Shown: positions 3,175-32,695, numbered from the stretch's first letter. The stretch is 64,000 nucleotides of DNA from Acidimicrobiia bacterium (GCA_965203555.1 CBDBCY010000004.1:224001-288000), one strand, 5' to 3'. Translations and numbers: made by a program. The notes: generated by a model not told the origin, from the letters alone.

Positions 3175-4416
3175 ATGAGGTCACGGCATATCCGCCTAAC
3201 TTCTCACATGGACAGTCACGGGCCTCAACCACTGTCCATTCGCTGGGGAGAGGCCACTGCCGCCGCCAGGGGACCCGTCATCGCAACGCTGAGCAATCTT
3301 GCACATCGCAATGTGGTGGGAACTCACAGCGGTGCCTACGCGATATATCGAGCGGTTTCCATCGCGCAGGGAAAACTGGACCGTGATTACCGGGCGGATC
3401 TCACCAACACTGCGCCCACCCGCCGCATCGGACCGCACCCCGCCTGGACCGAGCCTGGCAGGATCGTCTCCCTGGATCCGTGGGGTGCGATGACCGCCGA
3501 GTGCTTTGCGGATCTGCTGGCGGACGGCTACGACATCCGCCCCACCATCGCCGTCACCTCGGCTCACATTTTCATTCCCGAATTGAAGGACGCTATCGAG
3601 AAGGGACGGATCGTCCCCGACGGAGTCCTGTGTCTGCCGGACGGCTCCTGCCGGGTCACCAAGGCGGCCATCGAACCGGTCTGGCATCTTCCCGGCCTGG
3701 CGGACAGGTTTGATGTTGCCGAGCGGGATCTCCGCAGGATTCTTTTCGAAGAGACCGCGGGCATGTTCCCGGAGTTGGTCACCCGGTCGGACCTGGAAGT
3801 GTTCCTTCCGCCCATCGGAGGACAGACCATCTACATCTTCGGCGATCCGCGCAGCCTGGCCGACCCCGACCAGACGCTGGTGGGCAGAGTCCATGACGAG
3901 TGCAACGGTTCGGACGTGTTCGGGTCGGATATCTGCACTTGCCGACCCTATCTGGTGCACGGAATCGAAGTTTGTATCCAGACCGCTTCCCAGGGAGGAG
4001 CGGGGTTCATCGTCTACAACCGCAAGGAAGGCCGGGCGCTGGGAGAGGTCACCAAATTCCTGGTCTACAACGCTCGGAAGCGGCAGGAAGGCGGGGATCG
4101 CGCCGATGCCTATTTCACGCGGACCGAATGTGTGGCGGGGGTGCAGGATGCCCGCCACCAGTTGCTGATGCCCGACTCCCTGCACTGGCTGGGCATCACC
4201 AGGATCGACAAGTTCGTGTCCATGTCCGACGACAAGTACGGGGCCATCACCGGCTCGGGGATAGAAATCGGGGAGCGGGTCTCCATCCCTGCGGAACTGG
4301 TGCCCGCCGATGCCTGGGTGGAACTGGACGCCAAGGTGGCGGCCGGCTATTTCAGCGAAGAGGACCCTCCCGACCGGATGGAACTGGCCAAAGCCAAGGG
4401 ACGCTCACTGCATTGA
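3175..4416 (+). CDS. GTP cyclohydrolase II-like protein, URC1/Urg1 family
   Basis: N-terminal extension NVVGTHSGAYAIYRA plus GCH-II zinc motif RVHDECNGSDVFGSDICTC and RKEGRALG; start placed at MRSRHIRL. Confidence 0.88.
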   Translation: MRSRHIRLTSHMDSHGPQPLSIRWGEATAAARGPVIATLSNLAHRNVVGTHSGAYAIYRAVSIAQGKLDRDYRADLTNTAPTRRIGPHPAWTEPGRIVSLDPWGAMTAECFADLLADGYDIRPTIAVTSAHIFIPELKDAIEKGRIVPDGVLCLPDGSCRVTKAAIEPVWHLPGLADRFDVAERDLRRILFEETAGMFPELVTRSDLEVFLPPIGGQTIYIFGDPRSLADPDQTLVGRVHDECNGSDVFGSDICTCRPYLVHGIEVCIQTASQGGAGFIVYNRKEGRALGEVTKFLVYNARKRQEGGDRADAYFTRTECVAGVQDARHQLLMPDSLHWLGITRIDKFVSMSDDKYGAITGSGIEIGERVSIPAELVPADAWVELDAKVAAGYFSEEDPPDRMELAKAKGRSLH

Positions 4417-5579
4417 CCGTCCCGGATTTGGCCCGCCTCCGCCATCCTGACACTATCAGAAGCCAAGCCGAACGGATTCTTGCGCTCGCTGACCGACAGA
4501 AGTTGCAACGGTGGCGGATCGACCTGGAAAGGCTCCCGAATCTGGGCCGCCTGGTCGGTGAAGTGACCCGAAACCGGTACCCGGACCTGAAGGTGCCGCT
4601 CCACGGCCGCCGTCTCCACTTCAGAGTGGGGGACGTCGATCTGTGGCACAGACGCCCCCGCCCCGTCGACCGGGATGAAGCCGGCAGGTCCGACGTGGAA
4701 CTCATCGTGGTCTCGGTGCTGCTCGACGGGGGCAGCGGGGCCCGGTGGCGATACGCCGATTCGCAGATCCCGCAGGAGTTGAGGCGTTCGGAGGGACTGG
4801 CCGCAGCCAGCTTCCGGGCCTGGAAGAGGGGGGTGTTCTCCGATAGCGGTCTTCCGCGCGCCGATTCACGCGCGCTTTCCAACCTCGCCGACGGTGATCT
4901 GGCCGCCGCCTTTCAGGTAACACGGGACAACCCGTTGGTGGGGGTGGAGGGAAGGGCCGGACTGCTGAGAGCCTTGGGTGAAGTTTCGTCCGGTTGGCCC
5001 GGGCAGCGGGTGGGCGGTCTCTACGATCTGCTGGTTGACCGGTCCTCGGCCGGTGACCGCCTCTCGGCGGTGGCCCTGTTGAGGACTCTCTTGGAGCATC
5101 TGTCGCCTCTCTGGCCCGATACCACGGTGGCGCATGGCGAATTCCTGGGCGACGTCTGGCCCTATGCCTCCCTGGGACTGGTGCCTTTTCACAAGCTCAA
5201 CCAGTGGCTGGCCTATTCGCTGGTGGAACCGCTCGGCGCGGCCGGAGTCACGGTCACCGACGTGGACCGATTGACGCCCCTGGCGGAATACCGGAACGGG
5301 GGGCTGCTCATCGACGGCGGTGTCCTGACCCCCGTGGCGCCGCGATGGCAGACCGTCCGCCATCCGGTTTCCTCTCCACTGGTGGTGGAGTGGCGCGCGC
5401 TGACCGTGGCCCTGATCGACCGTCTGGCCGAGATGGTGCGGGAAGAACTGGGTGTGAGCCTCACCATGGCCCAGATTCTGGAAGGTGGAACCTGGGCGGC
5501 CGGAAGGAAGCTGGCCGCGGCGGGCCGCCCGGACCGCCGCCCGCCGGTCAGGGTGATCAGCAACGGGACTATCTTCTGA
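4413..5579 (+). CDS. URC4/Urg3 family protein (DUF1688)
   Basis: Motifs VSVLLDGGSG, RSEGLA, LVPFHKLNQWLAYSL, LAEYRNGGL, VEWRALTV, LEGGTW and SNGTIF; TTG start overlaps the upstream stop (TTGA). Confidence 0.88.
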   Translation: MTVPDLARLRHPDTIRSQAERILALADRQKLQRWRIDLERLPNLGRLVGEVTRNRYPDLKVPLHGRRLHFRVGDVDLWHRRPRPVDRDEAGRSDVELIVVSVLLDGGSGARWRYADSQIPQELRRSEGLAAASFRAWKRGVFSDSGLPRADSRALSNLADGDLAAAFQVTRDNPLVGVEGRAGLLRALGEVSSGWPGQRVGGLYDLLVDRSSAGDRLSAVALLRTLLEHLSPLWPDTTVAHGEFLGDVWPYASLGLVPFHKLNQWLAYSLVEPLGAAGVTVTDVDRLTPLAEYRNGGLLIDGGVLTPVAPRWQTVRHPVSSPLVVEWRALTVALIDRLAEMVREELGVSLTMAQILEGGTWAAGRKLAAAGRPDRRPPVRVISNGTIF

Positions 5580-5581
5580 CC

Positions 5582-6229
5582 ATGGCATCCCGGGCGTCCA
5601 ATTCCCAGGTCCACCTGATCGATCATCCCCTGGTCCAGCACAAGCTGACCCTGATGAGAAAGCGCGAGACCAGTTCCAGCGCCTTCCGCCGGTTGGCTTC
5701 GGAGATCTCGGGTCTTCTGGCCTACGAGGTGACTCGTCACCAGCCGTTGAAGCCCACCCGGATCAACACTCCCCTCAAAGCCATGACCGCTCCGCTCCTG
5801 GACGGGAAAAAGCTGGTGGTGATCTCCATCCTGCGGGCCGGCATCGCCATCGCCGACGGGATCGTGGACGCCATCCCCTCGGCGCGGATAGGGCATATCG
5901 GCCTGTACCGGGACCGGAGAACCGAGATGACGGTGGAGTACTACTTCAAGGCGCCTCGGAACATGTCGGATCGCACCGCCCTGGTGGTGGATCCCATGGT
6001 GGCCACCGGGCACTCGGCGGAGGCTGCTATCGCCCGAGTCAAGGGCACCAGCCCCAAGGAACTGGTGTTTATCTGCCTGATCGCTGCGCCGGAGGGAGTG
6101 GAGTACCTGCACAAGTATCACCCCGATGTGCCGATCTACTGCGCGGCGGTGGACGAAGGACTGGATCCCTCCGGTTACATTGTGCCCGGTTTCGGCGATG
6201 CGGGCGACCGGATCTTCGGCACCAAATAG
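5582..6229 (+). CDS. upp: Uracil phosphoribosyltransferase
   Basis: HPLVQHKLT, ILRAG, GHIGLYRD, PRPP-binding VDPMVATG and GYIVPGFGDAGDRIFGTK. Confidence 0.95.
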   Translation: MASRASNSQVHLIDHPLVQHKLTLMRKRETSSSAFRRLASEISGLLAYEVTRHQPLKPTRINTPLKAMTAPLLDGKKLVVISILRAGIAIADGIVDAIPSARIGHIGLYRDRRTEMTVEYYFKAPRNMSDRTALVVDPMVATGHSAEAAIARVKGTSPKELVFICLIAAPEGVEYLHKYHPDVPIYCAAVDEGLDPSGYIVPGFGDAGDRIFGTK

Positions 6230-18945: not shown

Positions 18946-21774
18946 ATGAACTCTCGTGAGCCGGTCTCTGTGGAGAGTTCTGGGTTGTACCGTTTCTTCA
19001 CAAGGGGACATGTTCGCGTCTCTCTAGTTGATGGACGACTTCGCCTGGAGAGGCAGGCGGGACGTGGGGCGGAGGAGTTAGGCGTCCGAGCGATCCACGA
19101 CATAACGGTTCGTCGTTCCTTGTTCCGAACGCGGTTGACAATCCACAGGTCAGATAACACCCGGTGCTCGATAGGTGGACTTGACCAGCAGGCCGCTGCC
19201 GGATTCCGCGTTGCTGTCCTGGAGACCGCCGGGCGGTATGCCTCCGAACTGGGTCCGCGTCTGGAGAAACTCGGAAGGTACCTGGACTTGGTCTGGGCTG
19301 GCGGCACCTATTTCAGGCATTCGGAGTCCCGCAAGTTTCATGAGGATCTGGTGTCGGCGGTCCACCAATCCGGCGGGCTGGTGCGGAACCGCCTCGGGCG
19401 GGGAGCGAGAGCTGCGTTTGTTCGGCTTGCCCCGCTCGAGTCCGCCCAGCGGTTCGAAGCGGAGCGGGCAAAGGCGAACAGGCATTTCATTGAGGTGACC
19501 ATCCCCTGGGTGAAAGAGGTATCCCGTTCGGTTCTCTCTCATCCGCTCACAGACGAGCAAGCAGAGGCGATCGCCACCGGCGAGGATGTAACCCTCGTGT
19601 TAGCTGGTGCGGGAACAGGCAAGACCGCGACCATCGTGGGCAAGGTCGCCCATCTGGTTCGTAACGAGGGGGTAGATCCGGATCAGGTCTTGGTGCTGGC
19701 CTACAACCGCAGGGCCGCCGAGGAAATCCGTGAACGTCTTCCCTGGGACCTCTCTGGGGCGCAGGTTTCAACTTTCCACGCCTTCGGCCGAAGCATCATC
19801 GCCAAGTCCGGGCGAGCCCCTTCGGTATCGAAACTTGCCGGAGACCGACGTGCTTTCACCAGGGAGATTGAGACCATTCTCCAAGAGATCTTGACCGATC
19901 CCGGGCAGCCGGCTGATGTGACCAACTTCCTTCTTTACCACCATCGGCCCTATCGTTCGGCCTTCGACTTCAAGACGGTCGCCGTATACGAGGAGTGGGT
20001 GCGCACGGTCGAGTTGCGAACGTTGAACGGCGAGTTGGTCAAGAGCTTCGAGGAACTCGTCATTGCCAACTTTCTGGCCGAGCATGGCATCCGGTATGAG
20101 TACGAACATGATTACCCGGTTGACACAGCAACCGGGTCGCACCGGCAGTACCAGCCTGACTTCTATCTCCCGGACCACCGTATCTACATAGAGCATTTCG
20201 CTCTCAACGAACAGATGAGGCCCCCGGGTCACTGGAAGGGTTACGCGGAAGGCGTCATTTGGAAGAGGAGTATCCACCAACAATATGGGACCACACTGGT
20301 GGAGACGTACAGCTGGCAGTACCGCAAGGGTGTGCTGCTGAATGGCCTACGGGGAGAACTCGAAGATAGAGGCGTCAGGCTGCACCCTATCCCGCGCCAG
20401 AGGCTACTCGGGGAACTGGTCAGACAGCTGGTTTCGTGGCTCTCTCAACTACTGTCCACATTCCTGAACCACGTCAAGACCAGCGGTCTGACATCGGACC
20501 AATTGCGGAAGCGTGCCCGTCAACGCCAAGATCATCTACGCTGCCGAAGCTTCCTGGGCCTCTTCGACGTGGTAAGTGAACGCTACGAGCGGCTGCTTGC
20601 AGATGAGCAGGCCGTGGATTTCCACGACCTAATCAATCGCGCGGTGATCCAGCTGCGACAAGGATTAGAAACCCCCGGGTTCCGCCATGTCTTGGTCGAC
20701 GAGTTCCAGGACATCTCCAGAGGCCGGATGGCGCTCCTCCAGGCACTCGCACAGTTCAATGTGGCATGGTTCCTCGTCGGTGACGACTGGCAATCCATCT
20801 ACCGCTTCGCCGGTAGCGATGTGGGTCTCGTGCGTAACTGCCGCACCTACCTCGGTCACACCAAGGAACAGACCCTAAGCCAGACCTTCCGATTCGGGCA
20901 CCGTATCCTCGGCCCGTCGACCGCGTTTGTGCAGCGCAACCCGGAACAGACGCAAAGGCCACTGCGTTCAAGCAGGCGCGGAGGCGACATTGGGATCAGC
21001 GTCGTAGTCGAGGCAGACTCTTCCCGCGGGGTCCAACGCGCCCTTGAGCACATCGAGACGCTCGGAGGAGGTGAACGCCGGACAGTGCTTGTCCTCGGCC
21101 GTTATGGCTTCAGCCGGGAGGTCCTCCCGCCGCTCCGACCATACCGGTCTCTGAAGGTGCGGTTCAGTACTGTGCACAGCGCAAAAGGGGAAGAGGCCGA
21201 CTACGTGGTGGTGGTGGACCTGAAGGATGACCGGATGGGATTCCCGTGCCGTCTCGAGGACGACCCGTTGCTGGACTTGGTGCTGCCCCCTCTGCACGGA
21301 GAGGCATTCCCGTTCGCCGAGGAGCGGCGTCTCTTCTATGTAGCCATGACGCGGGCGCGTTTCGGAACCTATCTGATCACGGATCCTGTACGACCGTCGA
21401 CGTTCGTCACGGAGTTGCTCCGCGAGTCCGAAGACCTATCACAACTCGGGCATCTCGCCCCGAATTGTGCACGTTGCCGCAGCGGCCGTCTGATCCCGTC
21501 CCAAACCGGTAGGAACCTGCGCTGCGCGAACCATCCAACCTGCGACTACCTGGCGCCCCGGTGCAACAGTTGCAACACCGGCTACTCGTTGGTTATGGGG
21601 AAGTCTGGAAGGCCCAAATGCAGCAATACGTCCTGCGGTCACCGTCCGAGGGCCTGCCCACAGTGCAGGATTGGCGTATTGGTGGAGAAGAAGGGCAGAT
21701 ACGGACGCTTCCGAGGATGCTCCAGATACTGGGCCGAACCGTCCTGCAAGCACACGGAGAAAATCGCTGGCTGA
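18946..21774 (+). CDS. UvrD/helicase IV-like SF1 helicase with an inserted nuclease-like segment and C-terminal zinc ribbons
   Basis: LAGAGTGKT, STFHAFG, VDEFQD, VGDDWQSIYRF, STVHSAKG, EERRLFYVAMTRA; internal YQPDFYL...IYIEHF; C-terminal Cys clusters ending GRFRGCSRY. Confidence 0.88.
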   Translation: MNSREPVSVESSGLYRFFTRGHVRVSLVDGRLRLERQAGRGAEELGVRAIHDITVRRSLFRTRLTIHRSDNTRCSIGGLDQQAAAGFRVAVLETAGRYASELGPRLEKLGRYLDLVWAGGTYFRHSESRKFHEDLVSAVHQSGGLVRNRLGRGARAAFVRLAPLESAQRFEAERAKANRHFIEVTIPWVKEVSRSVLSHPLTDEQAEAIATGEDVTLVLAGAGTGKTATIVGKVAHLVRNEGVDPDQVLVLAYNRRAAEEIRERLPWDLSGAQVSTFHAFGRSIIAKSGRAPSVSKLAGDRRAFTREIETILQEILTDPGQPADVTNFLLYHHRPYRSAFDFKTVAVYEEWVRTVELRTLNGELVKSFEELVIANFLAEHGIRYEYEHDYPVDTATGSHRQYQPDFYLPDHRIYIEHFALNEQMRPPGHWKGYAEGVIWKRSIHQQYGTTLVETYSWQYRKGVLLNGLRGELEDRGVRLHPIPRQRLLGELVRQLVSWLSQLLSTFLNHVKTSGLTSDQLRKRARQRQDHLRCRSFLGLFDVVSERYERLLADEQAVDFHDLINRAVIQLRQGLETPGFRHVLVDEFQDISRGRMALLQALAQFNVAWFLVGDDWQSIYRFAGSDVGLVRNCRTYLGHTKEQTLSQTFRFGHRILGPSTAFVQRNPEQTQRPLRSSRRGGDIGISVVVEADSSRGVQRALEHIETLGGGERRTVLVLGRYGFSREVLPPLRPYRSLKVRFSTVHSAKGEEADYVVVVDLKDDRMGFPCRLEDDPLLDLVLPPLHGEAFPFAEERRLFYVAMTRARFGTYLITDPVRPSTFVTELLRESEDLSQLGHLAPNCARCRSGRLIPSQTGRNLRCANHPTCDYLAPRCNSCNTGYSLVMGKSGRPKCSNTSCGHRPRACPQCRIGVLVEKKGRYGRFRGCSRYWAEPSCKHTEKIAG

Positions 21775-21849
21775 TGCACCCGTCTGTTACCGCGGATAAC
21801 CCCACCCGCAGGGGCAGGTCAAACCAGTACGAGTGGGGTGTGGGTCAAA

Positions 21850-22157
21850 GGAGCGCACCGGACCCAAAGTGGAGCCTCACCCGGCAGCTGTCCGGGGATC
21901 TCCAGGACTGATCACTACCACCAGAAAGTGAACCGTCTCGGGCGTACGATCGCTCGTTGGGCCACCCAGATCACGAACACTCTGGCACCACTCCGCCGTG
22001 ACCAACGGACTCACAGAGGGTCTGAACAACCTGATCAAGCGAGCAGCGTTCGGGTTTCGGAGCTTCACCAACTACAGAATCCGAGCATTCCTATACGCCG
22101 GAAATCCCAACTGGAAACTCCTTGCCACCATCACTCCCCGTTGAAATCCGAAGAGCC
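21850..22157 (+). mobile_element. ISL3-family transposase 3' remnant with right end
   Basis: Across frames: RLGRTIARWATQITN, TNGLTEGLNNLIKR, FGFRSFTNYRIRAFLYAG; ends in gaaatccgaagagcc, an ISL3-type terminus. Confidence 0.82.
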
Positions 22158-22248
22158 TGTTAACGAAGGGCCTGCCACCACCTAAGATCCCTTCCAGGCA
22201 ACTCCGCTCCCACCATTCCCTTGATTGAGAATGATCTCGCGAAGTCGA

Positions 22249-24057
22249 CTAATTTGGTTCTGTGATAAGCAACTCTTCTATTGCATTGTAGAAGGTGCGC
22301 TGCCGCTCCAGAGTGAAGTCTTCAAAGTCACTTATCCCGAACGGTGTACGGAGCAAAATCTCTAAAGCCGTCTCGGTGATAAAGTGCGACGCAAGGGTCG
22401 CGCGAACCGTTTCTTCGCCGTTGTTCTGGATGAGTTCCGGCAAGTATTCGTTTGGCAGTCGATCGCCGATGACGTGCCGGTTTGTGTTGGCGGTCAAAGG
22501 TGTGCGATTAAGAATCGAGTCAATCTTGACACCGAGCCCTTCTGTCCTTCCCCACCTCTGAGGCACGATGTGGTGGTCATCAAGCACTCCATGTTGGGGG
22601 ACAGCTCCAGTAATCCAATCCTTGGCTCCTCTTATAACGAGAAGATTGAAAAGCCCGTTATAGATAGATGTCCCTCGTCTTGTCTCTCGATGAAGCTCCA
22701 GTTCGCGGAAATCTCGCGTAAACTCAGAAATCAGGGCCGGTTCCGCCTCGTCACTTTCGAACCACTGACAAAGATCTCCGTAATCACGGGCTGCTGTGGA
22801 TTCAACTGCGCCTGAGTAGCGACGTGTGAAAACACTTGCCCAATACCAAAGTCTGATCTTTTTTTGTGCGTCAAGGTGACGATAAGGATCATTCTGGGAC
22901 GCTGCAGTCTGCAAAGCAGAAAAGGCAGGGACAATAGAGACATACGGAAGGTATCTTGAAAGAGTTGCTCCGAATTCCTGTGGATGCTGAAGCAACTTCA
23001 GACTACTCTCAATTGACTCCACTGCGGTATCCCAAAGCTGACTGAATTCATCAACATCACTTACCAGGATGATAGTTTTAAGAGTGCCGTCGGGCTCGCG
23101 CACCTTCTTCTTATGCCCTGGTAGTAAATAGTAAAGGTAATGCGGGGAGCAGTATTGTTGTCGAAGTATCGACATAACTTGTAGCACGTACACATTCATG
23201 CGTCCTGTCTCAACAAAATCAAGACGCTCCTTAGCGGCTCGCCACATATGCTTAAGTTGGAGACCTTTTGGTTTGAGCATGGCGTTCATTAAATCAAATA
23301 CATCCAGCCTAACACCTTTACTGTTGACTTGAGTAAAAATGTCGCATACCTTCGAAAGCTCTAGATCTTGGTCAAGCTCAATGTATGATACTTGATATTG
23401 TTGCTGAAGGTCGTGGAGGTAGATCCCGAATTGTTTGGCATCTTTGGCTCGTAGCTGTGCACGAGTTGCTAGATCTAGATCGCCACTTGCGTTCGCATCT
23501 TTGGCCTCTTTAGACCAATACGCCTCGTATTCCTGTACCCAGTTGGGCAAATCCCAGCCCTCTGCTCCGAAAATCCAGAGAGGAAATATGTGTTCTCTAA
23601 ACTGTTGTTGGCGATCCTTCATGAGCCTTGCAGTACCTCGCGTCCAGCCGTACGAGAAGGCTTCATCATAGTCCTCACTCATAAACCGGTCCACATGAAC
23701 ATAGTAGTAATAGCGATTGCGCCGATTAGGCAGATGTAGGTCTGGGGCAACGAAGGTATAGTAGATAGCAGTGAGGCGTTGCTGGCCGTCAAGGACAATG
23801 TGACGCGGATCTTCACTGTTGCTGGAGAATCCATAAACTGGTTCACATGCTAAAGCTCCAAAAGTCTCAGTCTTTCCCTTCCAGAGCAAGAGGCTGCCAA
23901 TAAAGTAGTCAAGGAAAATGGAACGCATGAGGTCGCGTATATCCCAGGGTTGCCATTCGAACTCCCTTTGAAAGTCCGGGATAACAAAGCTGCCTTCTCG
24001 AAGCTTCTTTATGAGGGGACCAAGACTAATGTGATTAGGTTTTTGTGCGTCTTTCAT
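22249..24057 (-). CDS. GmrSD-like DUF262 + HNH (DUF1524-type) modification-dependent restriction protein
   Basis: IPDFQREFEW, LDGQQRLT, FTQVNSKG and C-terminal DDHHIVP...ILNRTPLTANTN; visibly more AT-rich than its flanks. Confidence 0.88.
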   Translation of the reverse strand: MKDAQKPNHISLGPLIKKLREGSFVIPDFQREFEWQPWDIRDLMRSIFLDYFIGSLLLWKGKTETFGALACEPVYGFSSNSEDPRHIVLDGQQRLTAIYYTFVAPDLHLPNRRNRYYYYVHVDRFMSEDYDEAFSYGWTRGTARLMKDRQQQFREHIFPLWIFGAEGWDLPNWVQEYEAYWSKEAKDANASGDLDLATRAQLRAKDAKQFGIYLHDLQQQYQVSYIELDQDLELSKVCDIFTQVNSKGVRLDVFDLMNAMLKPKGLQLKHMWRAAKERLDFVETGRMNVYVLQVMSILRQQYCSPHYLYYLLPGHKKKVREPDGTLKTIILVSDVDEFSQLWDTAVESIESSLKLLQHPQEFGATLSRYLPYVSIVPAFSALQTAASQNDPYRHLDAQKKIRLWYWASVFTRRYSGAVESTAARDYGDLCQWFESDEAEPALISEFTRDFRELELHRETRRGTSIYNGLFNLLVIRGAKDWITGAVPQHGVLDDHHIVPQRWGRTEGLGVKIDSILNRTPLTANTNRHVIGDRLPNEYLPELIQNNGEETVRATLASHFITETALEILLRTPFGISDFEDFTLERQRTFYNAIEELLITEPN

Positions 24058-24208: not shown

Positions 24209-25387
24209 TCACCACCCGTTCTGTGGAGACGGGACTTGGAAGTCGGAGCCGAGCGTCCGCCATATCATCGGGACGCCGGGGCGGTAGGCGAGGTGATGGC
24301 GGGTTGGGGCGTTGAGGATGGTGAGGTGGGCTGGGCCTTCGGGGGCTAGGCGACCGACGTCGGTTCGGCGTAAGGCGGCGGCGGCGCCGGTGGTTGCTGC
24401 TGCTATGGCTTCGTCGATGGTCATGTTCATATCGCGGACAGCCAGGGCGATGCAGAAGGAGATGGAGGTGGTGTAGCTCGAGCCGGGGTTGCAGTTGGAG
24501 GCGATGGCCACTTGGACTCCGGCGTCGATGGCGCGGCGGGCGTTGGGGTAGGGCTGGCGGGTGGAGAAGTCGGCGGCGGGGAGGAAGGTGGCTACGGTGT
24601 CGCTGGCGGCGAGCATCTCGATGTCTTGGTCGGAAAGGTAGGTGCAATGGTCTACGGAGGCACAGCCCATCTCCACGCCGAGGCGGACCCCGGGTCCGTA
24701 GTGGAGTTGGTTGGCGTGGAGGCGTAAACCCAAGCCTGCCCGCCTTCCGGCTTCGAGGACCGCTCTCGATTGATCGACGTCAAAGGCGCCGGTCTCGCAG
24801 AACACATCGATCCAGCGCACATGGGGGCGGACCGCATCGAGCATGGGCCCGCAGACCAACTCGGTGTAGTCGTCGGCGCGTCCCTGGTACTCGCTCGGTA
24901 CGACATGGGCGCCCAGGAAGGTGGTCTCGGTGGTCACTTCGGCTGCCAGGGAGGTGGTCAGGGCTTCGGATTCGACCGACAGTCCATAGCCCGACTTGAT
25001 CTCCACGGTTGTGGTGCCCGCCCGGTGTGCCTCGATGAGCCGCCGATCTAGTGCCGATCTCAGGGCCTTCCGGCTGGCGGCGCGGGTGGCTTCGGTGGTG
25101 ACCCGGATCCCTCCTCCGTCGTAGGGTTCGCCGGCCATGCGACGGGTGAACTCCTCGGCGCGGTCACCGGCGAAGACCAGGTGGGTGTGGGAGTCGACGA
25201 ATCCGGGTAGCACACACCGACCCCCGACGTCGAGACGTTCATCGGCCAACGCGCCGGTCGGGCAGATGGCGATTACCTGGTCGTCGTCGATCACTACGGA
25301 GGCGTTCTTGACGATCCCGAGCGCTCCCTCTCCCAGGGCGGGGATGTTGGTGATCAACTCGCCGATGTTGTCGACCACCAGGGTCAT
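24209..25387 (-). CDS. hutI: Imidazolonepropionase
   Basis: PGFVDSHTHLVFAGDRAEEF, GTTTVEIKSGYGL, DVFCETGAF and SNCNPGSS; start MTLVVDN overlaps the hutF stop. Confidence 0.95.
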   Translation of the reverse strand: MTLVVDNIGELITNIPALGEGALGIVKNASVVIDDDQVIAICPTGALADERLDVGGRCVLPGFVDSHTHLVFAGDRAEEFTRRMAGEPYDGGGIRVTTEATRAASRKALRSALDRRLIEAHRAGTTTVEIKSGYGLSVESEALTTSLAAEVTTETTFLGAHVVPSEYQGRADDYTELVCGPMLDAVRPHVRWIDVFCETGAFDVDQSRAVLEAGRRAGLGLRLHANQLHYGPGVRLGVEMGCASVDHCTYLSDQDIEMLAASDTVATFLPAADFSTRQPYPNARRAIDAGVQVAIASNCNPGSSYTTSISFCIALAVRDMNMTIDEAIAAATTGAAAALRRTDVGRLAPEGPAHLTILNAPTRHHLAYRPGVPMIWRTLGSDFQVPSPQNGW

Positions 25388-26748
25388 GAGGTCATCAACT
25401 TGGGGATGATGGAGTCGAGTTCGGAGGCAACATTGATCGAGACGTGGGTCCCGTCGACCACGACCGGCGCTCCCCCCACCACCAGGTGACGGACATCGGC
25501 GCTCGATGCGGCGAAGATCGCCGAAGCGAGTGCATTGGCGGCGTCGGCGCCGGCGAGGCGCACCGAGTCGAGACCCAGAGTGGCGAAGTCGGCCAGGGAA
25601 CCCGGCGTGAGAGCGCCTCCCTCGGTCCATCCCAGCGACAGGTAGCCGTTTCGGGTGGCCATGTCGGCCAGGGCTTCGAGCGAGTGCACCCCCCGCTCGA
25701 GTTTGGTGACACGCTGGCCCATCTCGACTGCCCGGGTCTCCTCGAAGAGATCGACGATGGCATGGGAGTCCGAACCCACGCAGAGGCGGGCGCCGGCGGC
25801 CGCCAGTGCCTCGCTCGGGCCGATGCCGTCGGCCAGATCGCGTTCGGTTGTCGGGCAGAGACAGACGTTCGCTCCGGCCTCGCCGACCAGGGAGATGTCT
25901 TCTTCCGAGACATGCGTGGCGTGGACCAGCGTTGTCTGGGGACCCAGACCGCCCGCATCGGCCATCACCCCGATCGGGGTTCGCCCATGAACCTCGAGGC
26001 ACCCCCGGTTCTCGGCGGGCTGCTCGGAGATGTGGACGTGGAGCGGCGCGCGGTTTTCGGCAGCCCAACGCGCCGCGGTCCTGATAGACGTAGGGTCCAC
26101 GGCGCGCACCGAGTGGACAGCCGCGCTCACCGAGGTGTTCGAGCCCGAGATGGCGGTGGCCAGGTCGTCCACCCGGTCCGCCCATGCCTCGGCGGAGCCG
26201 TCGGAGAAGCGGGCTTGTTCCTCTGACAGGGGTGCGTACCCGGATGCCGTCCCGGGAGCAAAGCCACCGTGGAGGTAGAGGGTGTCGAGGAGGGTGAGGC
26301 GGATGCCGGCGTCGGTGGCCGCTGCCGCCAGTGAGGCTCCCATGGCGTTGGGGTCGTCGTAGGCGCCCCCGCCGGGACGGTGGTGGACGTAGTGGAATTC
26401 GCCCACCACGCCGATTCCGGCCATGGCCATCTCGGCGAAGACCGCCCGGGCAAGTCGGTAGTAGTTGTCGGGATCGAGGCCGGAAGAAACCCGGTACATG
26501 AGGTCCCGCCAGGTCCAGAACGTGCTCCGCTCGCCCTGGGTTCGGCTCCGGAGTGCCCGGTGGAAAGCATGGCTGTGCGCGTTGGCCAGCGCCGGAATCG
26601 TCAGTCCTCGCAGCTGTGTGGCGCCCGGGGGAGGAGCGCTGTGCCCGGAGGTCACCGCGCAGATGCCACCCTGATCGACTTCGATCACCACTCCCGGTGC
26701 AGCTTCCGGACCACCCAGCCAGGCCAGTTCGCACCAGTAGACGGTCAC
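25384..26748 (-). CDS. hutF: Formimidoylglutamate deiminase
   Basis: LANAHSHAFHRAL, FWTWRDLMY, VGEFHYVHH, HSVRAV, HVHISEQ, CPTTERDLADG and GSDSH. Confidence 0.95.
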   Translation of the reverse strand: MTVYWCELAWLGGPEAAPGVVIEVDQGGICAVTSGHSAPPPGATQLRGLTIPALANAHSHAFHRALRSRTQGERSTFWTWRDLMYRVSSGLDPDNYYRLARAVFAEMAMAGIGVVGEFHYVHHRPGGGAYDDPNAMGASLAAAATDAGIRLTLLDTLYLHGGFAPGTASGYAPLSEEQARFSDGSAEAWADRVDDLATAISGSNTSVSAAVHSVRAVDPTSIRTAARWAAENRAPLHVHISEQPAENRGCLEVHGRTPIGVMADAGGLGPQTTLVHATHVSEEDISLVGEAGANVCLCPTTERDLADGIGPSEALAAAGARLCVGSDSHAIVDLFEETRAVEMGQRVTKLERGVHSLEALADMATRNGYLSLGWTEGGALTPGSLADFATLGLDSVRLAGADAANALASAIFAASSADVRHLVVGGAPVVVDGTHVSINVASELDSIIPKLMTS

Positions 26749-27314
26749 GATCCGACCTCTCGGACGAAGCGGGTGATGCGCTCGACGAAGGCGTCCTGGT
26801 GGTGGGTCCTGAACTGCTCCCAGGTCGCGAGCGTCCTGGGGTCGATCCGATCGACCACCAGGATGCCGTTGAGGTGGTCACACTCGTGCTGCCAGGTGCC
26901 GGCGGTGAGTCCCCGCACCACCCGTTGGTGGTCGACGCCCTCGCGATCGGTGTATCGGACCGCAAGGTTGACCGAGCGGACCAGTTCGCCTCTCAACGGC
27001 ACCGACAGGCATCCCTCGTTGATGACCACCTTCTCGTCGTCCATGACTTCGAGTTCCGGATTGATGGCCACCGTCAGGGGCACGGGGGGCTTGTAGGGGT
27101 AGCGAGGGTTGTCCTTCACCTCGATGGTGAGGACCCGGTCGGTCTCTCCTATCTGGTTGGCGGCTATGCCCGCCCCGTTGGCGTGGCGCATGGTGTCGAT
27201 GAGATCGTCGATGAGGCACTGGATTCGCGGGCTGGAGATGTCCGAACGCGGCACCGGCGTGGTCCTGGTCCGCAAGGTGGGATGGCCGATGGGGAGAATG
27301 GGGCGGACGGTCAT
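26745..27314 (-). CDS. def: Peptide deformylase family protein inside the hut operon
   Basis: All three PDF motifs are intact: GAGIAANQIG, EGCLSV and QHECDHLNG; stop overlaps the hutF start (GTGA). Confidence 0.93.
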   Translation of the reverse strand: MTVRPILPIGHPTLRTRTTPVPRSDISSPRIQCLIDDLIDTMRHANGAGIAANQIGETDRVLTIEVKDNPRYPYKPPVPLTVAINPELEVMDDEKVVINEGCLSVPLRGELVRSVNLAVRYTDREGVDHQRVVRGLTAGTWQHECDHLNGILVVDRIDPRTLATWEQFRTHHQDAFVERITRFVREVGS

Positions 27315-27447
27315 GGGGGTGGCCTGTGGCCGACGGCCGGCAACGTCCGGCAGGTGGGATGGCGGTGGGGGAGGGGCGACCGGAGAACAGCCGATCCGTG
27401 AACTTCGAGCGGGAGGCGCGGCCCGCCGGGCAGGCGGCTGGCGGCCA

Positions 27448-29139
27448 CTATCGCCGGGTCTTCTCCGCCATGGGTACGTGCACTCCCCGGTCGGCGGCGA
27501 CCCGGACGGCCTCGTCGTAGCCGGCGTCGACGTGGCGCATCACCCCGGTGGCCGGGTCGTTCAGAAGGACCCGCTCCAGCTTGGCGGCCGCCAGGTCGGT
27601 GCCGTCGGCGAGGCACACCTGGCCGGCGTGGATCGACCGGCCGATGCCGACGCCGCCGCCGTGGTGGATGCTCACCCAGGTGGCGCCCGAAGACGCATTG
27701 ACCAGGGCGTTGAGCAGTGGCCAGTCGGCGATGGCGTCGCTGCCGTCCGCCATGTCCTCGGTCTCCCGGTAGGGCGAAGCAACCGAGCCGGAGTCGAGAT
27801 GGTCGCGGCCGATGACGATGGGAGCGGAGATCTCCCCGGATCTGACCATCTCGTTGAAGCGAAGCCCCAGGCGATGGCGCTCGCCGTAACCGACCCAGCA
27901 GATCCGGGCCGGGAGACCCTGGAAGGCGACCCGTTCGCCGGCCAGGTTAATCCAGCGGGCAAGAGCCTCGTTCTCGGGGAACTCCTCGAGCACGGCCCGA
28001 TCGGTGGCGGCGATGTCCGCCGGGTCGCCGGACAGGGCCACCCAGCGAAAAGGCCCCTTGCCCTCGCAGAACAGCGGACGGATGTAGGCGGGTAGGAACC
28101 CGGGATAGTCGAAGGCGCGGTCGTATCCTCCCAGTGCGGCCTCGGCCCGGAGGCTGTTGCCGTAGTCGAACACCTCGGCGCCGGCGTCGAGGAACCCGAC
28201 CATAGCCTCCACATGGGTGGCCATGGCGTGGCGGGCCCGATCGATGTACTCGTCGGGCTTCTTGTCACGTATGTCATCGGCTTCCTCGAGGGAGAGATCG
28301 AGGGGGATATAGGTGAGCGGATCGTGCGCCGAGGTCTGATCGGTGACGATGTCGGCCGAGACCCCGTCGGCCAGGAGGCGCGGCAGCAGGTCGGCGGCGT
28401 TGCCGACCAGTCCCACCGAGAGGGCCCTCCGGGCGGAGACCGCTTCCCGGCAGCGACGGAGTGCGTCGTCGTAGTCGTCGGCCACCACGTCCAGGAACCG
28501 GGTCTCGACGCGGCGAGCCGCCCGGTGGGGGTCGACCTCGATGCAGAGTGCCACGCCGTCGTTCATGGTGATGGCCAGCGGTTGGGCGCCTCCCATGCCG
28601 CCCAGTCCGGCGGTGACGGTGAGGGTGCCTGCCAGAGACCCGTCGAAGCGCTTCCGGGCGATGGCGGCGAAACACTCGTATGTCCCCTGCAGGATGCCCT
28701 GGGTGCCGATGTATATCCACGAGCCGGCGGTCATCTGCCCGTACATGGTGAGACCGAGGTGCTCGAGGCGGCGGAACTCGTCCCAGGTGCCCCAGTCGGG
28801 GACCAGGTTGGAGTTGGCGATCAGGACCCTGGGCGCCCACTCATGGGTCCGGAGGACGCCGACCGGCTTGCCGGACTGCACCAGCATGGTCTCGTCGTCT
28901 TCGAGGGTGGTGAGTGTCCGGATCATGGCGTGGTAGGCGTCCCATGACCTGGCCGCCCGACCGGTCCCCCCGTAGACCACCAGGTCCGCGGGTCGCTCGG
29001 CGACCTCGGGATCGAGGTTGTTCTGGAGCATCCGGAAGGCGGCCTCCTGCGGCCACCCGCGGCAGGTCAACGACGTGCCCCTCGGGGAGCGGACGCCACC
29101 CGGCGGTGCGCCGGAACTGTGTTGGGCTATGGCGGTCAT
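27448..29139 (-). CDS. hutU: Urocanate hydratase
   Basis: [43 protein letters not shown] and [13 protein letters not shown]. Confidence 0.97.
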
Positions 29140-29239
29140 GGTGGCTTACCACATCAGCACGGTGGGTCGTTTACAGGTCCGGGCTGCTGGTTGCCATTAT
29201 ACCGATCGTGCATCTATCCTGTCATTTACTAGCAATACT

Positions 29240-29254
29240 TTTCATGCAGTGAAA
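29240..29254. promoter_or_regulatory. Candidate IclR-type operator
   Basis: Palindrome TTTCA-N5-TGAAA in the divergent hutU/regulator region. Confidence 0.45.
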
Positions 29255-30001
29255 TCACCGAACCTCAGAACAGATCGCACGGCTTCCGAGGGAACGCCAT
29301 CCAATGGCGAGTCCCCAGCGCCCCTCCACAAATCACGTTCGGCGGAGCGGGTGCTCGCCCTACTGGACACCGTCATCACCAACGGAGCGGTCACCCTTAC
29401 GGACGCGGCTGCCGAAGCCGACATGCCAACCAGCACCGCCCTGCGGCATCTGCGGCTTCTGACCAACCGGGGCTATCTCGTTCGGGACGACCGGGGTTGG
29501 TACTCGGTCGGACCCGCCTTCGTGCGTATCGCGCTGCTCTCTTTCCAATCGGGTCCCTACGCACAACTCATGACAGCGGCCCAGCCCGGCCTCGAGCGGT
29601 TGGTCGAGGTCACCGAAGAGTCTGCATATCTGGCCGTGCGAGATGGAGGCGAGGCGGTCTACATTGCCACGGTCGAGAGCCGGCGGGCCATCCGCCACGT
29701 CGGCTGGGTAGGCAAGTCGGTGCCGCTGCAGGGGACCGCGGTGGGTGAGGCTCTGCTAAGCGAAGCGCCGTCGCCCGGTGCTCGGTGCAAGGCGGTGCTC
29801 AACACCGGCGCCATCGAGCCCGATGTCACCGCCGTGGTGGCGCCCATCCACGGGTCGGCTGGCGTGATGGGGGCATTCTCGGTGCTGGGTCCGGCCGAGC
29901 GGATCGTCGGGGAGCGCTTGGAGATTGCAACGGAAGCGGTGGTGAACGTCGCTATGGCTACGTCGAATTCCCTCTGCAGGGCCGAGGCAGTACGGCCATG
30001 A
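29249..30001 (+). CDS. IclR-family transcriptional regulator (HutR-like); start uncertain
   Basis: SAERVLALL...TLTDAA...PTSTALRHLRLL HTH, then TEESAYLAV and VPLQGTAVGEALL effector-domain motifs. Confidence 0.88.
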   Translation: MKSPNLRTDRTASEGTPSNGESPAPLHKSRSAERVLALLDTVITNGAVTLTDAAAEADMPTSTALRHLRLLTNRGYLVRDDRGWYSVGPAFVRIALLSFQSGPYAQLMTAAQPGLERLVEVTEESAYLAVRDGGEAVYIATVESRRAIRHVGWVGKSVPLQGTAVGEALLSEAPSPGARCKAVLNTGAIEPDVTAVVAPIHGSAGVMGAFSVLGPAERIVGERLEIATEAVVNVAMATSNSLCRAEAVRP

Positions 30002-31524
30002 GCGTGGTACTCGAAGGTCCCGGCGTAACCATCGCCGATGTTGTTGCGGTTGCGCGCCGTGGTGAGCGGGTTCATCTCAGCGATGCAGCCTTAGAGCGGA
30101 TGGCGGTTAGTCGCCGGATCGTCGAACGCCTGGCGGAGGGCGATCCCGTATACGGCGTCTCGACCGGATTCGGCGCCCTGGCTACCACGACGATTCCCCC
30201 CGATCGGCGGGAGACCCTCCAGCGTGCAATGATCCGCTCCCACGCAGCAGGGATGGGATCGGCTGTGGAGACGGAAATGGTTCGGGCCATGATGTTCCTG
30301 CGGGCGCGGACCCTGGCGCTGGGAGCTTCAGGCGCCCGACCGCTGGTCGCAGAGACGCTGGTGCGGATGATCAACGCCGGTGTTGTTCCCGTGGTCCCCG
30401 AGCACGGCTCTCTCGGCGCCAGCGGCGACCTGGCGCCTCTCGCCCATGTTGCCATGGTTCTGATCGGTGAGGGCGAGGTCCTTGCCGACGCAGGGGTATG
30501 CGAAGGCGGGGCGGCGATGGCTCGGGCGGGCGTCGAGCCGGTGGAACTGGTGGAGAAGGAGGGCCTGGCGCTCATCAACGGGACCGACGGCATCCTGGGC
30601 ATGCTCTGTCTGGCGGTCCATGACGCCTCTCATCTTCTCACCGTCGCCGACATCGTGGCGGCTCTCAGCGTCGAGGGTCTCCTCTGCACCGACCGGGCAT
30701 ACGCCGCCGACCTGCAGGCGCTCCGCCCGCATCCGGGCCAGGCGTTGAGCGCCGCCAATCTCCGCCGGATGCTTCGGGGATCGCCGATCGTGGCCAGCCA
30801 CCGAACCGACGATGTTCGAGTGCAGGACGCCTACTCGATACGGTGCACACCCCAGGTTCACGGCGCGGCGCGTGACACCCTGGGGTTCGTGACGAATGTG
30901 GCGAAACGGGAGTTGGCGTCGGCCATCGACAATCCGATGGTGCTTTCCGACGGCCGAATCGAGTCGTGCGGCAACTTTCACGGAGCGCCGGTGGCGATGG
31001 CGGCCGATTACCTGGCGATCGCCATGGCCGAGGTCGGGGCCATCGCCGAGCGTCGTGTGGACCGGTTACTCGACTACAACCGCTCCCAAGGTCTGCCTCC
31101 CTTCCTGGCCGCCGACCCCGGTGTCGACAGCGGCTTGATGATCGCCCAGTACACCGCGGCTGCGATGTGCGCCGAGAACCGCCGTCTGGCCGCTCCCGCA
31201 GTGGTCGATTCGTATCCCACCTCGGCCATGCAGGAGGACCATGTCTCGATGGGATGGAGCGCGGCCCGCAAACTTCGCCGGGTGATCGACAACCTCCGTC
31301 GCATCCTGGCCATCGAGTGGGTCACCGCCGCCCGGGCCGTGGAACTGCGCGCTCCCCTGATGCCGAGTGACGGCACCGCAGCGGCCGTGGACTTGTTACG
31401 GACGCGGGTTCGGGGGCATGGTCCCGACCGGCCCCTGGCGCCCGAGTTGTCGGCGGCCGAGCAACTGCTCGGAGAGGAGTCGCTGGTGAGGGCGGTCGAG
31501 ATGGTGACGGGCCCCCTCGACTGA
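29998..31524 (+). CDS. hutH: Histidine ammonia-lyase
   Basis: VYGVSTGFG, MIO-forming GASGDLAPL, VQDAYSIRC, GNFHG and QEDHVSMG. Confidence 0.97.
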   Translation: MSVVLEGPGVTIADVVAVARRGERVHLSDAALERMAVSRRIVERLAEGDPVYGVSTGFGALATTTIPPDRRETLQRAMIRSHAAGMGSAVETEMVRAMMFLRARTLALGASGARPLVAETLVRMINAGVVPVVPEHGSLGASGDLAPLAHVAMVLIGEGEVLADAGVCEGGAAMARAGVEPVELVEKEGLALINGTDGILGMLCLAVHDASHLLTVADIVAALSVEGLLCTDRAYAADLQALRPHPGQALSAANLRRMLRGSPIVASHRTDDVRVQDAYSIRCTPQVHGAARDTLGFVTNVAKRELASAIDNPMVLSDGRIESCGNFHGAPVAMAADYLAIAMAEVGAIAERRVDRLLDYNRSQGLPPFLAADPGVDSGLMIAQYTAAAMCAENRRLAAPAVVDSYPTSAMQEDHVSMGWSAARKLRRVIDNLRRILAIEWVTAARAVELRAPLMPSDGTAAAVDLLRTRVRGHGPDRPLAPELSAAEQLLGEESLVRAVEMVTGPLD

Positions 31525-31544: not shown

Positions 31545-32528
31545 CTATACCTCTGCGGCCAGGATGTCCGCCAACCGGTCGGCGCCGATGCTCCCGCCGC
31601 TCAGAATGCAGGCAACGGGACCGTCACGGTCCTCTGCGAGGGCGGCTGCTACAGACATGGCGCCGGACCCTTCGACCACCAGCTTGTTCCCCAATGCCAG
31701 GTGAGCGATGGCGGTGCGAACGTCGGCTTCCGAGACCAGGACCACCCTGTCGACCACGGAACTGACCAGCGGGTACATCTCGTCGACCACCACCGGCACC
31801 ATGGTGCCGTCACAAATGGTCTCACCCGTTTCGACCCATCTCGGTTGACCGGCATCCAGGGCTGCATGCAGGGAAGGACACGCCCTGCTCTGCACTCCGA
31901 TGATCTCCGTGGCCGGTCGGAGTTCCTTGATCACACTGCCTATGCCGGACACCAATCCGCCGCCGCCCACCGGTATGTAGATCGCTCTCACCTCGGGGAG
32001 GTCCTCCAGGATCTCAAGGTCGATCGTTCCCGAGCCCGCCAGCATTGAGGGATCTCCCCAGGGATTGAGGTAGCTGTACGGTTCCTTCTCCCATCCCTTG
32101 TCGAACACGTAGTCCATGAGCGCCGAGAACGGGACCGGCACCGGCGTGACGCCGTAGGCGCGGACCCCGTCTACCTTCACCTGCGGCGCGGTGGCGGGCA
32201 GGAGACTGCGGGCCGGGACCCCCAGCAACTGCGCCGAGTAGCCGAGAGCCTGCGCGGTGTTGCCGGCGCTCTGGGTGGTCACACCCCTTTGAAGGTCGGC
32301 GTCCGACAGCGATCGCGCCCAGTTGAACACGCCGCGCAGCTTGAAGGATCCGACCGGCTGGAGGCACTCCGCCTTGATCCAGATGGAAGGGCCGGGCTCA
32401 GGAGACTTGTACTGCAGGAGGGGTGTGCGCAATGCAACTCCGCTGATGCGCCAGGATGCCTCCCGCACATCTTGGACTGAAGGTGGGGGAATGGGAGGGT
32501 CCCCGGATCCGGTTCTCATAGGGCCCAT
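31545..32528 (-). CDS. PLP-dependent serine/threonine dehydratase family protein
   Basis: KAECLQPVGSFKLRG (PLP lysine), SAGN, PVGGGGL and ILSGG. Confidence 0.88.
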   Translation of the reverse strand: MGPMRTGSGDPPIPPPSVQDVREASWRISGVALRTPLLQYKSPEPGPSIWIKAECLQPVGSFKLRGVFNWARSLSDADLQRGVTTQSAGNTAQALGYSAQLLGVPARSLLPATAPQVKVDGVRAYGVTPVPVPFSALMDYVFDKGWEKEPYSYLNPWGDPSMLAGSGTIDLEILEDLPEVRAIYIPVGGGGLVSGIGSVIKELRPATEIIGVQSRACPSLHAALDAGQPRWVETGETICDGTMVPVVVDEMYPLVSSVVDRVVLVSEADVRTAIAHLALGNKLVVEGSGAMSVAAALAEDRDGPVACILSGGSIGADRLADILAAEV

Positions 32529-32695
32529 GCGCTGAACTCCTTCACTTGTTGCCCGTACCTTCAGAGTAGGTCGGAGCCGAGGGTATGGCAAGAACGGTGA
32601 ACGGTGTGGTGAGGGCCCGCCGGGAGCCGACCCCACGGTAACAAATCAACCTGAGAAGATGGGTCTCCCACTTGCTGTCGGGTTGGACAGGTCCT

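Follow-up and report, generated by a model that had tools for sequence, protein, structure and literature searches.

The window analysed here is a 64,000 nt stretch of DNA from an Acidimicrobiia bacterium (G000:C4:224001–288000; genome G000, 3.42 Mb in four contigs, 95.2% complete). It contains a histidine utilization (hut) operon that includes a gene for a paralogue of peptide deformylase (PDF), and a first-pass annotation had proposed that this paralogue has been recruited in place of HutG, the enzyme that normally deformylates N-formyl-L-glutamate. The genes of the locus were identified with curated profile models and are arranged as follows:

27448–29139, minus strand: hutU, urocanate hydratase, the first gene of the operon (TIGR01228, 895.7 bits, cut-off 375; plus three urocanase Pfam domains)
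26745–27314, minus strand: hut-type PDF paralogue, 189 aa (PF01327, 135.6 bits, cut-off 22.8; TIGR00079, 105.4 bits)
25384–26748, minus strand: hutF, formimidoylglutamate deiminase, GTG start (NF006681, 580.3 bits, cut-off 362; TIGR02022, 454.7 bits, cut-off 413)
24209–25387, minus strand: hutI, imidazolonepropionase, ATG start (TIGR01224, 347.1 bits, cut-off 298)
29249–30001, plus strand: IclR-family regulator (PF09339 HTH_IclR and PF01614 IclR_C; inferred start GTG at 29249)
29998–31524, plus strand: hutH, histidine ammonia-lyase, ATG start (TIGR01225, 656.4 bits, cut-off 539)
29196–29225, minus strand: sigma-70-like promoter match between the two divergent operons, ahead of hutU (11/12 hexamer positions, ATGACA-18-TATAAT; a consensus match only)

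The profile matches agree with the layout given in the first-pass annotation: hutU, the PDF gene, hutF and hutI follow each other on the minus strand, the IclR regulator and hutH diverge from them on the plus strand, and the cluster contains no gene for an N-formylglutamate amidohydrolase (FGase), an arginase-family protein or an M20 hydrolase. The two 4 nt overlaps that it reported were read from the sequence as GTGA (PDF stop/hutF start, 26745–26748) and ATGA (hutF stop/hutI start, 25384–25387). A third such junction, beyond those two, joins the iclR stop to the hutH start (ATGA, 29998–30001), and the start of hutH was moved to 29998 because of this overlap. A gap of 133 nt separates hutU from the PDF gene, and no terminator-like site was seen inside the operon. 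Sigma-70-like sites were seen twice in 7.8 kb, against an expectation of 0.8. Regulation of the two divergent operons probably falls to the IclR-type protein. Of the sequencing runs listed for the operon, none is RNA; the two on record, DNA or of unknown type, come from a single study.

The match of the 189 aa protein to PF01327 extends over profile positions 2–153 of 156, and there is no match to PF05013, the FGase/HutG family. The three PDF motifs noted earlier are indeed retained—GAGIAANQ at residues 47–54, EGCLS at 100–104 and HECDH at 143–147—and align with the same motifs of E. coli def. They occur family-wide in PDFs, and are invariant in 100 of the 100 hut-linked copies compared below.

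Two PDF genes are present in G000. The second (C4:96869–97363; PF01327, 154.3 bits) is followed, after 42 nt, by a Formyl_trans_N (fmt-like) gene, and it is taken to be the housekeeping def; the def–fmt pair spans C4:96869–97908, an arrangement also present in E. coli K-12. A whole-genome profile search of G000 returned no FGase-family gene, and whole-genome searches for an arginase-family gene (formiminoglutamase type) and for FTCD_N (formiminotransferase) likewise returned none. All eight M20 genes of G000 lie outside the window; none of the eight matches the hydantoinase/allantoate-amidohydrolase models, and none matches NF006770 at E ≤ 1e-30. Since the genome is 95% complete, these alternative last-step enzymes are best described as not found, rather than absent. 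Two possibilities that had been raised against recruitment—that the hut-linked copy is the genome's only def, and that a canonical hutG lies elsewhere in the genome—are thus not what was seen in G000.

To place the paralogue among its relatives, 151 genomes of the class were searched with the window's PDF protein. Twenty of them, G000 included, carry what we call the hut-type PDF: a full-length match of 187–425 bits and 49–100% identity. All other PDF matches in the class reach at most 74.9 bits and 42% identity, and each of the 20 carriers has at least one further PDF. Two trees were built. In the first, a quick tree of 147 rows, all 20 hut-type copies fall into a single 55-row subtree (SH-like approximate likelihood ratio test, SH-aLRT, 93) together with 35 unnamed cluster representatives; 33 ordinary class PDFs form a clade of their own (SH-aLRT 94), branching along taxonomic families, and seven PDFs of a second ordinary type form a separate clade (SH-aLRT 97) that is unrelated to the hut type. 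The second, more careful tree has 94 rows, namely 26 hut-linked copies, 40 ordinary PDFs and 28 representatives lacking RYPY (part of the loop motif described below); RYPY-bearing representatives and fragments were left out. The 26 hut-linked rows group with one representative, P0155, in which the catalytic Glu is missing, at ultrafast bootstrap (UFBoot) 97 and SH-aLRT 89; the bootstrap, at a correlation of 0.968, had not converged completely. All 40 ordinary PDFs lie outside this clade; the hut-linked copies stand apart from housekeeping def. The second ordinary PDF type is carried by seven class genomes (L125, L134, L136, L140 and L150–L152).

The hut clade is also distinct at the level of individual residues. 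Comparison of 100 hut-linked copies with the 40 ordinary class PDFs and 59 of the nearest non-hut representatives yielded 11 clade-specific positions (at least 90% in the hut clade, at most 15% in the others): Y74, K75, N99, R134, T137, G139, T140, W165, F176, R179 and I180. Three groups of residues are of interest. Firstly, every one of the 100 hut-linked copies has a RYPYKP loop, which all 40 ordinary PDFs lack; 72 of the 150 representatives share it, and 115 of the 120 closest database matches have it too. The nearest non-hut PDFs have RYP followed by Asp/Glu-Ala (RYP[D/E]A), and therefore an acidic residue appears to have been swapped for Tyr-Lys (Y74–K75) in the hut type. Secondly, G139 and T140 stand where others have Arg/Ile and Val/Ile. 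In the alignment with E. coli def, DGLLAICIQHEMDH becomes RGLTAGTWQHECDH, such that Ile128 corresponds to Gly139, Cys129 to Thr140 and Asp123 to Arg134; we take Ile128 and Cys129 of the E. coli enzyme to line the S1' pocket for the methionine side chain. Thirdly, there is a conserved extra C-terminal segment (W165, F176, R179 and I180), with a median net charge of −2 against +1 in ordinary copies, a comparison in which the maximum is inflated by one mis-extended open reading frame (ORF). The charge difference is a weak hint that ribosome binding may have been lost. The best solved relative is PDB 1sv2 (117.8 bits), which contains NERYPGTP and GYKAIVYQHECDH; it is presumably the Leptospira interrogans PDF, in which we take the corresponding loop to gate the active site.

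Within the class, hut genes surround the PDF in all 20 carriers (tblastn maps of 19 fetched loci and the window). The hutF gene, above cut-off in 21 of the 151 class genomes, lies on the same strand within 3 kb of the hut-type PDF in 19 of the 20. With H for hutH, U for hutU, P for the hut-type PDF, F for hutF and I for hutI, the gene order is U-P-F-I in nine class genomes, U-F-I-P-H in four, U-F-P-I in three, F-P alone in two, and H-F-I-U-P and H-U-P-I in one each. A wider scan, with one genome per species, covered the best 80 of 584 relatives (58–90% identity), whose record titles are mostly Acidimicrobiia, Ilumatobacteraceae and Microthrixaceae, with some Solirubrobacterales or Thermoleophilia. 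Among these best 80 loci, hut genes adjoin the PDF in every one, and hutF is present in 76, within 100 bp in 65 of them. The four loci without a counted hutF are L053, whose contig stops immediately behind the PDF, L083, where hutF falls under the score threshold, and L078 and L095, which have a PDF without hutF. Finally, clade-profile matches at E ≤ 1e-35 were found in 14 of 401 genomes sampled across the phylum, six of them outside the class. RYPYKP is present in five of these six out-of-class copies, four of which sit in H-U-P-F-I clusters; the sixth match (G501) lacks both RYPYKP and hut linkage. Linkage to hutF hence extends class-wide and into some further classes of the phylum, persisting through six gene orders and in gene fusions.

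The fusions were found by searching representatives at 50% identity. Representative P0162 (659 aa) consists of a PDF (residues 1–159) followed by HutF (residues 211–657; TIGR02022, 389.5 bits); its 90% cluster has six members, and one 659 aa member is found on 13 contigs from three source collections. At locus L172, on a 91 kb JGI metagenome contig of 49% GC, one uninterrupted ORF (3839–5998) contains both domains, and at L173 (74% GC) the PDF/HutF joint is read through in one frame. The two metagenome lineages concerned are unrelated, and RYPYKP and AAGT-QHE are kept in both fusions. That two enzymes are fused is a classic sign of one shared pathway, usually of consecutive steps. Two further cases, P0154 (partial PDF and HutF) and P0204 (urocanase C-terminus and PDF), are singletons and may be gene-calling artefacts. 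Screening metagenomes with the fusion protein as anchor mainly recovered stand-alone hutF of other lineages: with the reference set used, hutF was the sole gene recognised at 74 of 80 loci, and only the two fusion loci were informative about the last step.

Some observations on fusion loci are recorded in their own right. In the region L172:2320–5998, the fusion lies beside an Oscp1-family gene (PF10188, 215.5 bits), a family that we take to be eukaryotic; the contig, whose ORFs are sparse, may stem from a microbial eukaryote. More distant PDF fusions without RYPYKP include P0188 (590 aa), a PDF with ankyrin repeats, and P0270 (459 aa), a TatD-type hydrolase with a PDF.

A survey of the phylum sample revealed a second enzyme beside hutF. 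At E ≤ 1e-90, hutF was found in 74 of the 401 genomes and, at E ≤ 1e-95, an NF006770-type M20 hydrolase in 54. Within 3 kb of hutF lies M20 in 41 of the 74 genomes, a hut-type PDF in 12 and both together in none, counts to be read as a pattern rather than a statistic since relatives are not independent; in one genome M20 lies elsewhere, not near hutF, and in the remaining 20 the neighbour is neither. Two unpublished genomes are included (G262, among the 20 with neither, and G167, with M20 and no hutF), and the 41, 12 and 0 are unchanged without them. The distance between M20 and hutF is mostly below 100 nt. Inside the class, too, genome G047, which has no hut-type PDF in its hut cluster, carries an NF006770-type M20 gene (507 bits) directly upstream of hutF-hutU-hutI. 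Because two unrelated amide hydrolases alternate in this slot, one of them from a family of dedicated deformylases, deformylation is the likeliest function of the slot. Of the anti-correlation that had been anticipated between hut-linked PDFs and other last-step enzymes, the part concerning M20 stands, as the two exclude each other near hutF; the part concerning FGase holds only partially, with an unlinked FGase match in five of the 20 class carriers. Nine carriers also have hydantoinase-family M20 paralogues, below the NF006770 cut-off (222–280 bits) and not hut-linked; these track one taxonomic family, being present in 17 of its 17 genomes, with or without hut genes.

HutF converts formiminoglutamate to N-formyl-L-glutamate, and PDFs hydrolyse N-formyl amides. 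Together with the genomic context, this makes it likely that the hut-type PDF is an N-formyl-L-glutamate deformylase that has replaced HutG by non-orthologous displacement. The recruitment proposed in the first-pass annotation gains support from each of the comparative tests: a second def in the genome, a clade of its own, conserved hut linkage, fusion to HutF and mutual exclusion with M20. In the mechanism that we propose, HutH, HutU and HutI would produce N-formimino-L-glutamate, HutF would take off the imino nitrogen as ammonia to give N-formyl-L-glutamate, and the hut-type PDF would hydrolyse the N-formyl amide to formate and L-glutamate, the last of five pathway steps. In doing so, it would fill the operon slot held by the M20 hydrolase in most other Actinomycetota. 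The catalytic machinery is predicted to be that of any PDF, with a metal held by Cys102, His143 and His147, Glu144 as the general base, and Gln54. The shift in specificity, from N-formylmethionine (fMet) peptides to a free acidic amino acid, may be due to three features: (i) the extended loop after the first motif, with its invariant RYPYKP, in which Tyr74-Lys75 would take the place of the Asp/Glu-Ala of the nearest ordinary PDFs, (ii) Gly139 and Thr140, at the presumed S1'-pocket positions (Ile128 and Cys129 in E. coli), and (iii) the gain of Arg134, along with the conserved, non-basic C-terminal extension. A substrate with two carboxylates would suit a pocket that is wider, more polar and more positively charged. 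The carboxylates are predicted to touch K75, R71 and R134, with the gamma-carboxylate in the space opened by G139 and T140.

A number of points weigh against this reading. The protein scores 105.4 bits with TIGR00079, the Def equivalog model (EC 3.5.1.88), barely above the cut-off (103.95), which the fused relative P0162 misses with 95.2 bits; hut-type PDFs may have residual or dual activity on peptides. The S1'-pocket assignment is tentative, coming from alignment to E. coli def, and the substrate, the product and the roles suggested for individual residues all derive from genomic context and sequence. FGase-family matches occur in ten of the 151 class genomes, five of them PDF carriers, always away from the hut cluster; only one of these matches, in G055, scores high (154.6 bits). 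Furthermore, none of the 20 phylum genomes in which hutF neighbours neither M20 nor PDF has an FGase gene. Of six such genomes inspected, one (G161) has a diverged M20 (34% identity) in its cluster; in the other five (e.g., L257–L261; U-F-I and similar), tblastn with the reference set gave no last-step candidate, and a further, unrecognised last-step enzyme may be at work. The class genomes G082, G033 and G142 are likewise without a known last-step enzyme. Gap-filling logic alone is therefore weak, because hutF genomes without a candidate are not peculiar to PDF carriers. Outside the class, G358 has a RYPYKP-bearing copy that stands apart from hut genes, and its hutF-like gene is on a different contig. 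Next, the M20 hydrolase (COG0624) of other hut clusters has been predicted to be an 'alternative N-formylglutamate deformylase', and Table 3 (case 20) of a 2011 study lists no deformylase activity detected with the Streptomyces avermitilis protein (PMC3223725). That entry may mean that genomic context misleads here, or that the assay missed the right metal or conditions. Finally, some clusters have a PDF without hutF: G094 (L019, G094:C7), with hutH-hutU-PDF-hutI, and the similar loci L078 and L095.

Two of the genomes just mentioned have further peculiarities. The G358 copy adjoins a gene for a pyridoxal phosphate (PLP)-dependent enzyme of family PF00291 (L169:3885–4985, plus strand); a member of the same family (202.6 bits; 31545–32636, minus strand) is found beside hutH in the window, convergent with it, and the coincidence may be fortuitous. 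G082, a same-family relative without a hut-type PDF, has a winged-helix-turn-helix/S-adenosylmethionine-methyltransferase gene between hutI and hutF (L030, G082:C4, 4954–6003 and 5885–7273); its hutF match contains an in-frame TAA, and its second PDF is very divergent (L133, the longest branch in the trees).

The clusters without hutF bear on a rival explanation to N-formylglutamate deformylation. It holds that the hut-type PDF acts on N-formimino-L-glutamate, or on both formimino and formyl compounds, releasing formamide or ammonia plus formate, such that HutF has become dispensable in some lineages. The G094 cluster, L078 (r'-H-U-P-I) and L095 (h'-P-I, on a 3.7 kb contig) are what this explanation predicts, and attack of a metal-activated water on a formimidoyl carbon would be chemically close to attack on a formyl carbon. 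Yet 19 of the 20 class carriers and 76 of the 80 best loci have HutF beside the PDF, and a PDF–HutF fusion would be pointless if the PDF bypassed HutF. The hutF of G094 may merely be unassembled, as this 96%-complete genome is in 160 contigs and its hut contig ends 4 kb downstream; the best hutF-like match in it scores 113 bits. We consider direct action on the formimino compound quite unlikely. A broader proposal, which we also regard as unlikely, if a shade less so, joins both ideas: the hut-type PDF would be the first metabolic member of the PDF fold to act beyond nascent peptides, it would form a two-enzyme unit with HutF that is fused in some lineages, and in clusters lacking hutF it would by itself turn N-formimino-L-glutamate into glutamate, a new, fourth route by which histidine catabolism ends.

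Alternatively, the hut-type PDF could be an ordinary second peptide deformylase for nascent proteins, brought into the hut operon by chance or co-regulation and without any role in histidine catabolism. The intact motifs, the matches to PF01327 and (marginally) TIGR00079, and the name 'peptide deformylase' in every source all fit an isozyme of this kind. So does 1sv2, which was deposited as a peptide deformylase and has part of the loop (NERYP), and many bacteria have two def genes. Chance hitch-hiking, however, leaves unexplained how the association was retained through six gene orders, at 80 of 80 loci and in other classes, and neither the HutF fusions nor the strict exclusion with M20 from the same slot would be expected. 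The 11 residues conserved at 90% or more in the clade, including Gly139 and Thr140 at the presumed S1' positions, are equally hard to reconcile with an isozyme, and G000 already has its housekeeping def–fmt pair. A mere isozyme thus seems very unlikely. Least likely of all is that the hut-type PDF hydrolyses some other small formyl- or acyl-amide (N-formyl-isoglutamine, N-formylaspartate or a side product) or serves mainly as a structural partner of HutF: the negative result tabulated for the analogous M20 in one reported test (PMC3223725, Table 3) leaves room for some other substrate of the slot enzyme in Actinomycetota, but past HutF, N-formyl-L-glutamate is the sole pathway intermediate that needs hydrolysis, and a purely structural role sits badly with the strict conservation of the catalytic residues.

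One other feature of the window deserves mention. Directly downstream of hutI lies a gene for a 602 aa GmrSD-type restriction endonuclease homologue (22249–24057, minus strand; PF03235 N-terminal domain, 111.5 bits). The GC content of the window is lowest here (0.546 for 20001–24000, against ~0.61 overall and 0.669 for the hut genes), and the gene may be an acquired defence gene.

The first-pass annotation knew of no description of a PDF homologue linked to hut genes or to N-formylglutamate, and we found none in the full-text literature either, supplements and most subscription journals being beyond reach. NCBIfam, Pfam, the source annotations and the ESM Atlas clusters all label the protein 'peptide deformylase'; because they do so, metabolic reconstructions miss the step and over-count def. 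The fold and the chemistry are known; what is, quite probably, new is the substrate and the physiological role as a HutG replacement. So far, the PDF fold has been associated with the co-translational maturation of proteins and has served as an antibiotic target. If N-formylglutamate deformylation is indeed the function, the fold gains a second physiological job, the hut-type PDF illustrates how the specificity of a PDF can change in nature, and a gap in histidine catabolism is closed for a large, mostly uncultured group, the Acidimicrobiia (such as Ilumatobacteraceae, Microthrixaceae and sponge symbionts), along with some members of other classes. Re-annotation could follow a simple sequence rule, namely the RYPYKP loop together with Gly139 and Thr140, and the alternation of PDF and M20 bears on the older, unvalidated prediction for M20.

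The hut-type PDF can be set beside three known systems. The hut-linked M20 of actinobacteria (NF006770 type) occupies the same slot next to hutF and never occurs there together with the PDF, yet belongs to an unrelated family; it is not an established point of reference, because its predicted activity was not detected in vitro according to Table 3 of PMC3223725. With canonical Def (PF01327, EC 3.5.1.88), of which loop-bearing PDFs such as 1sv2 come nearest, the hut type shares the fold family, the three motifs and the metal ligands, and with 1sv2 also R108-G109, R113 and, in the loop, N-x-RYP. It differs in several respects: it is embedded in hut genes rather than linked to fmt, it forms a separate clade, and it has an extra C-terminal segment with the lower median net charge given above (−2 against +1). 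Moreover, in the hut type Y74-K75 substitutes for D/E-A, N99 for W/D/E and R134 for D/E, and, ahead of HExxH, T137, G139 and T140 occupy positions that are otherwise hydrophobic or Arg. The closest parallel in function would be HutG of Pseudomonas-type hut operons (FGase family, PF05013, EC 3.5.1.68), a hut-operon member with the same proposed reaction and the same place after HutF. The two differ in fold and family, with PF05013 matched neither by the window protein nor by any gene found in G000; because fold and family are unrelated, the hut-type PDF would be analogous to HutG, and not homologous to it.

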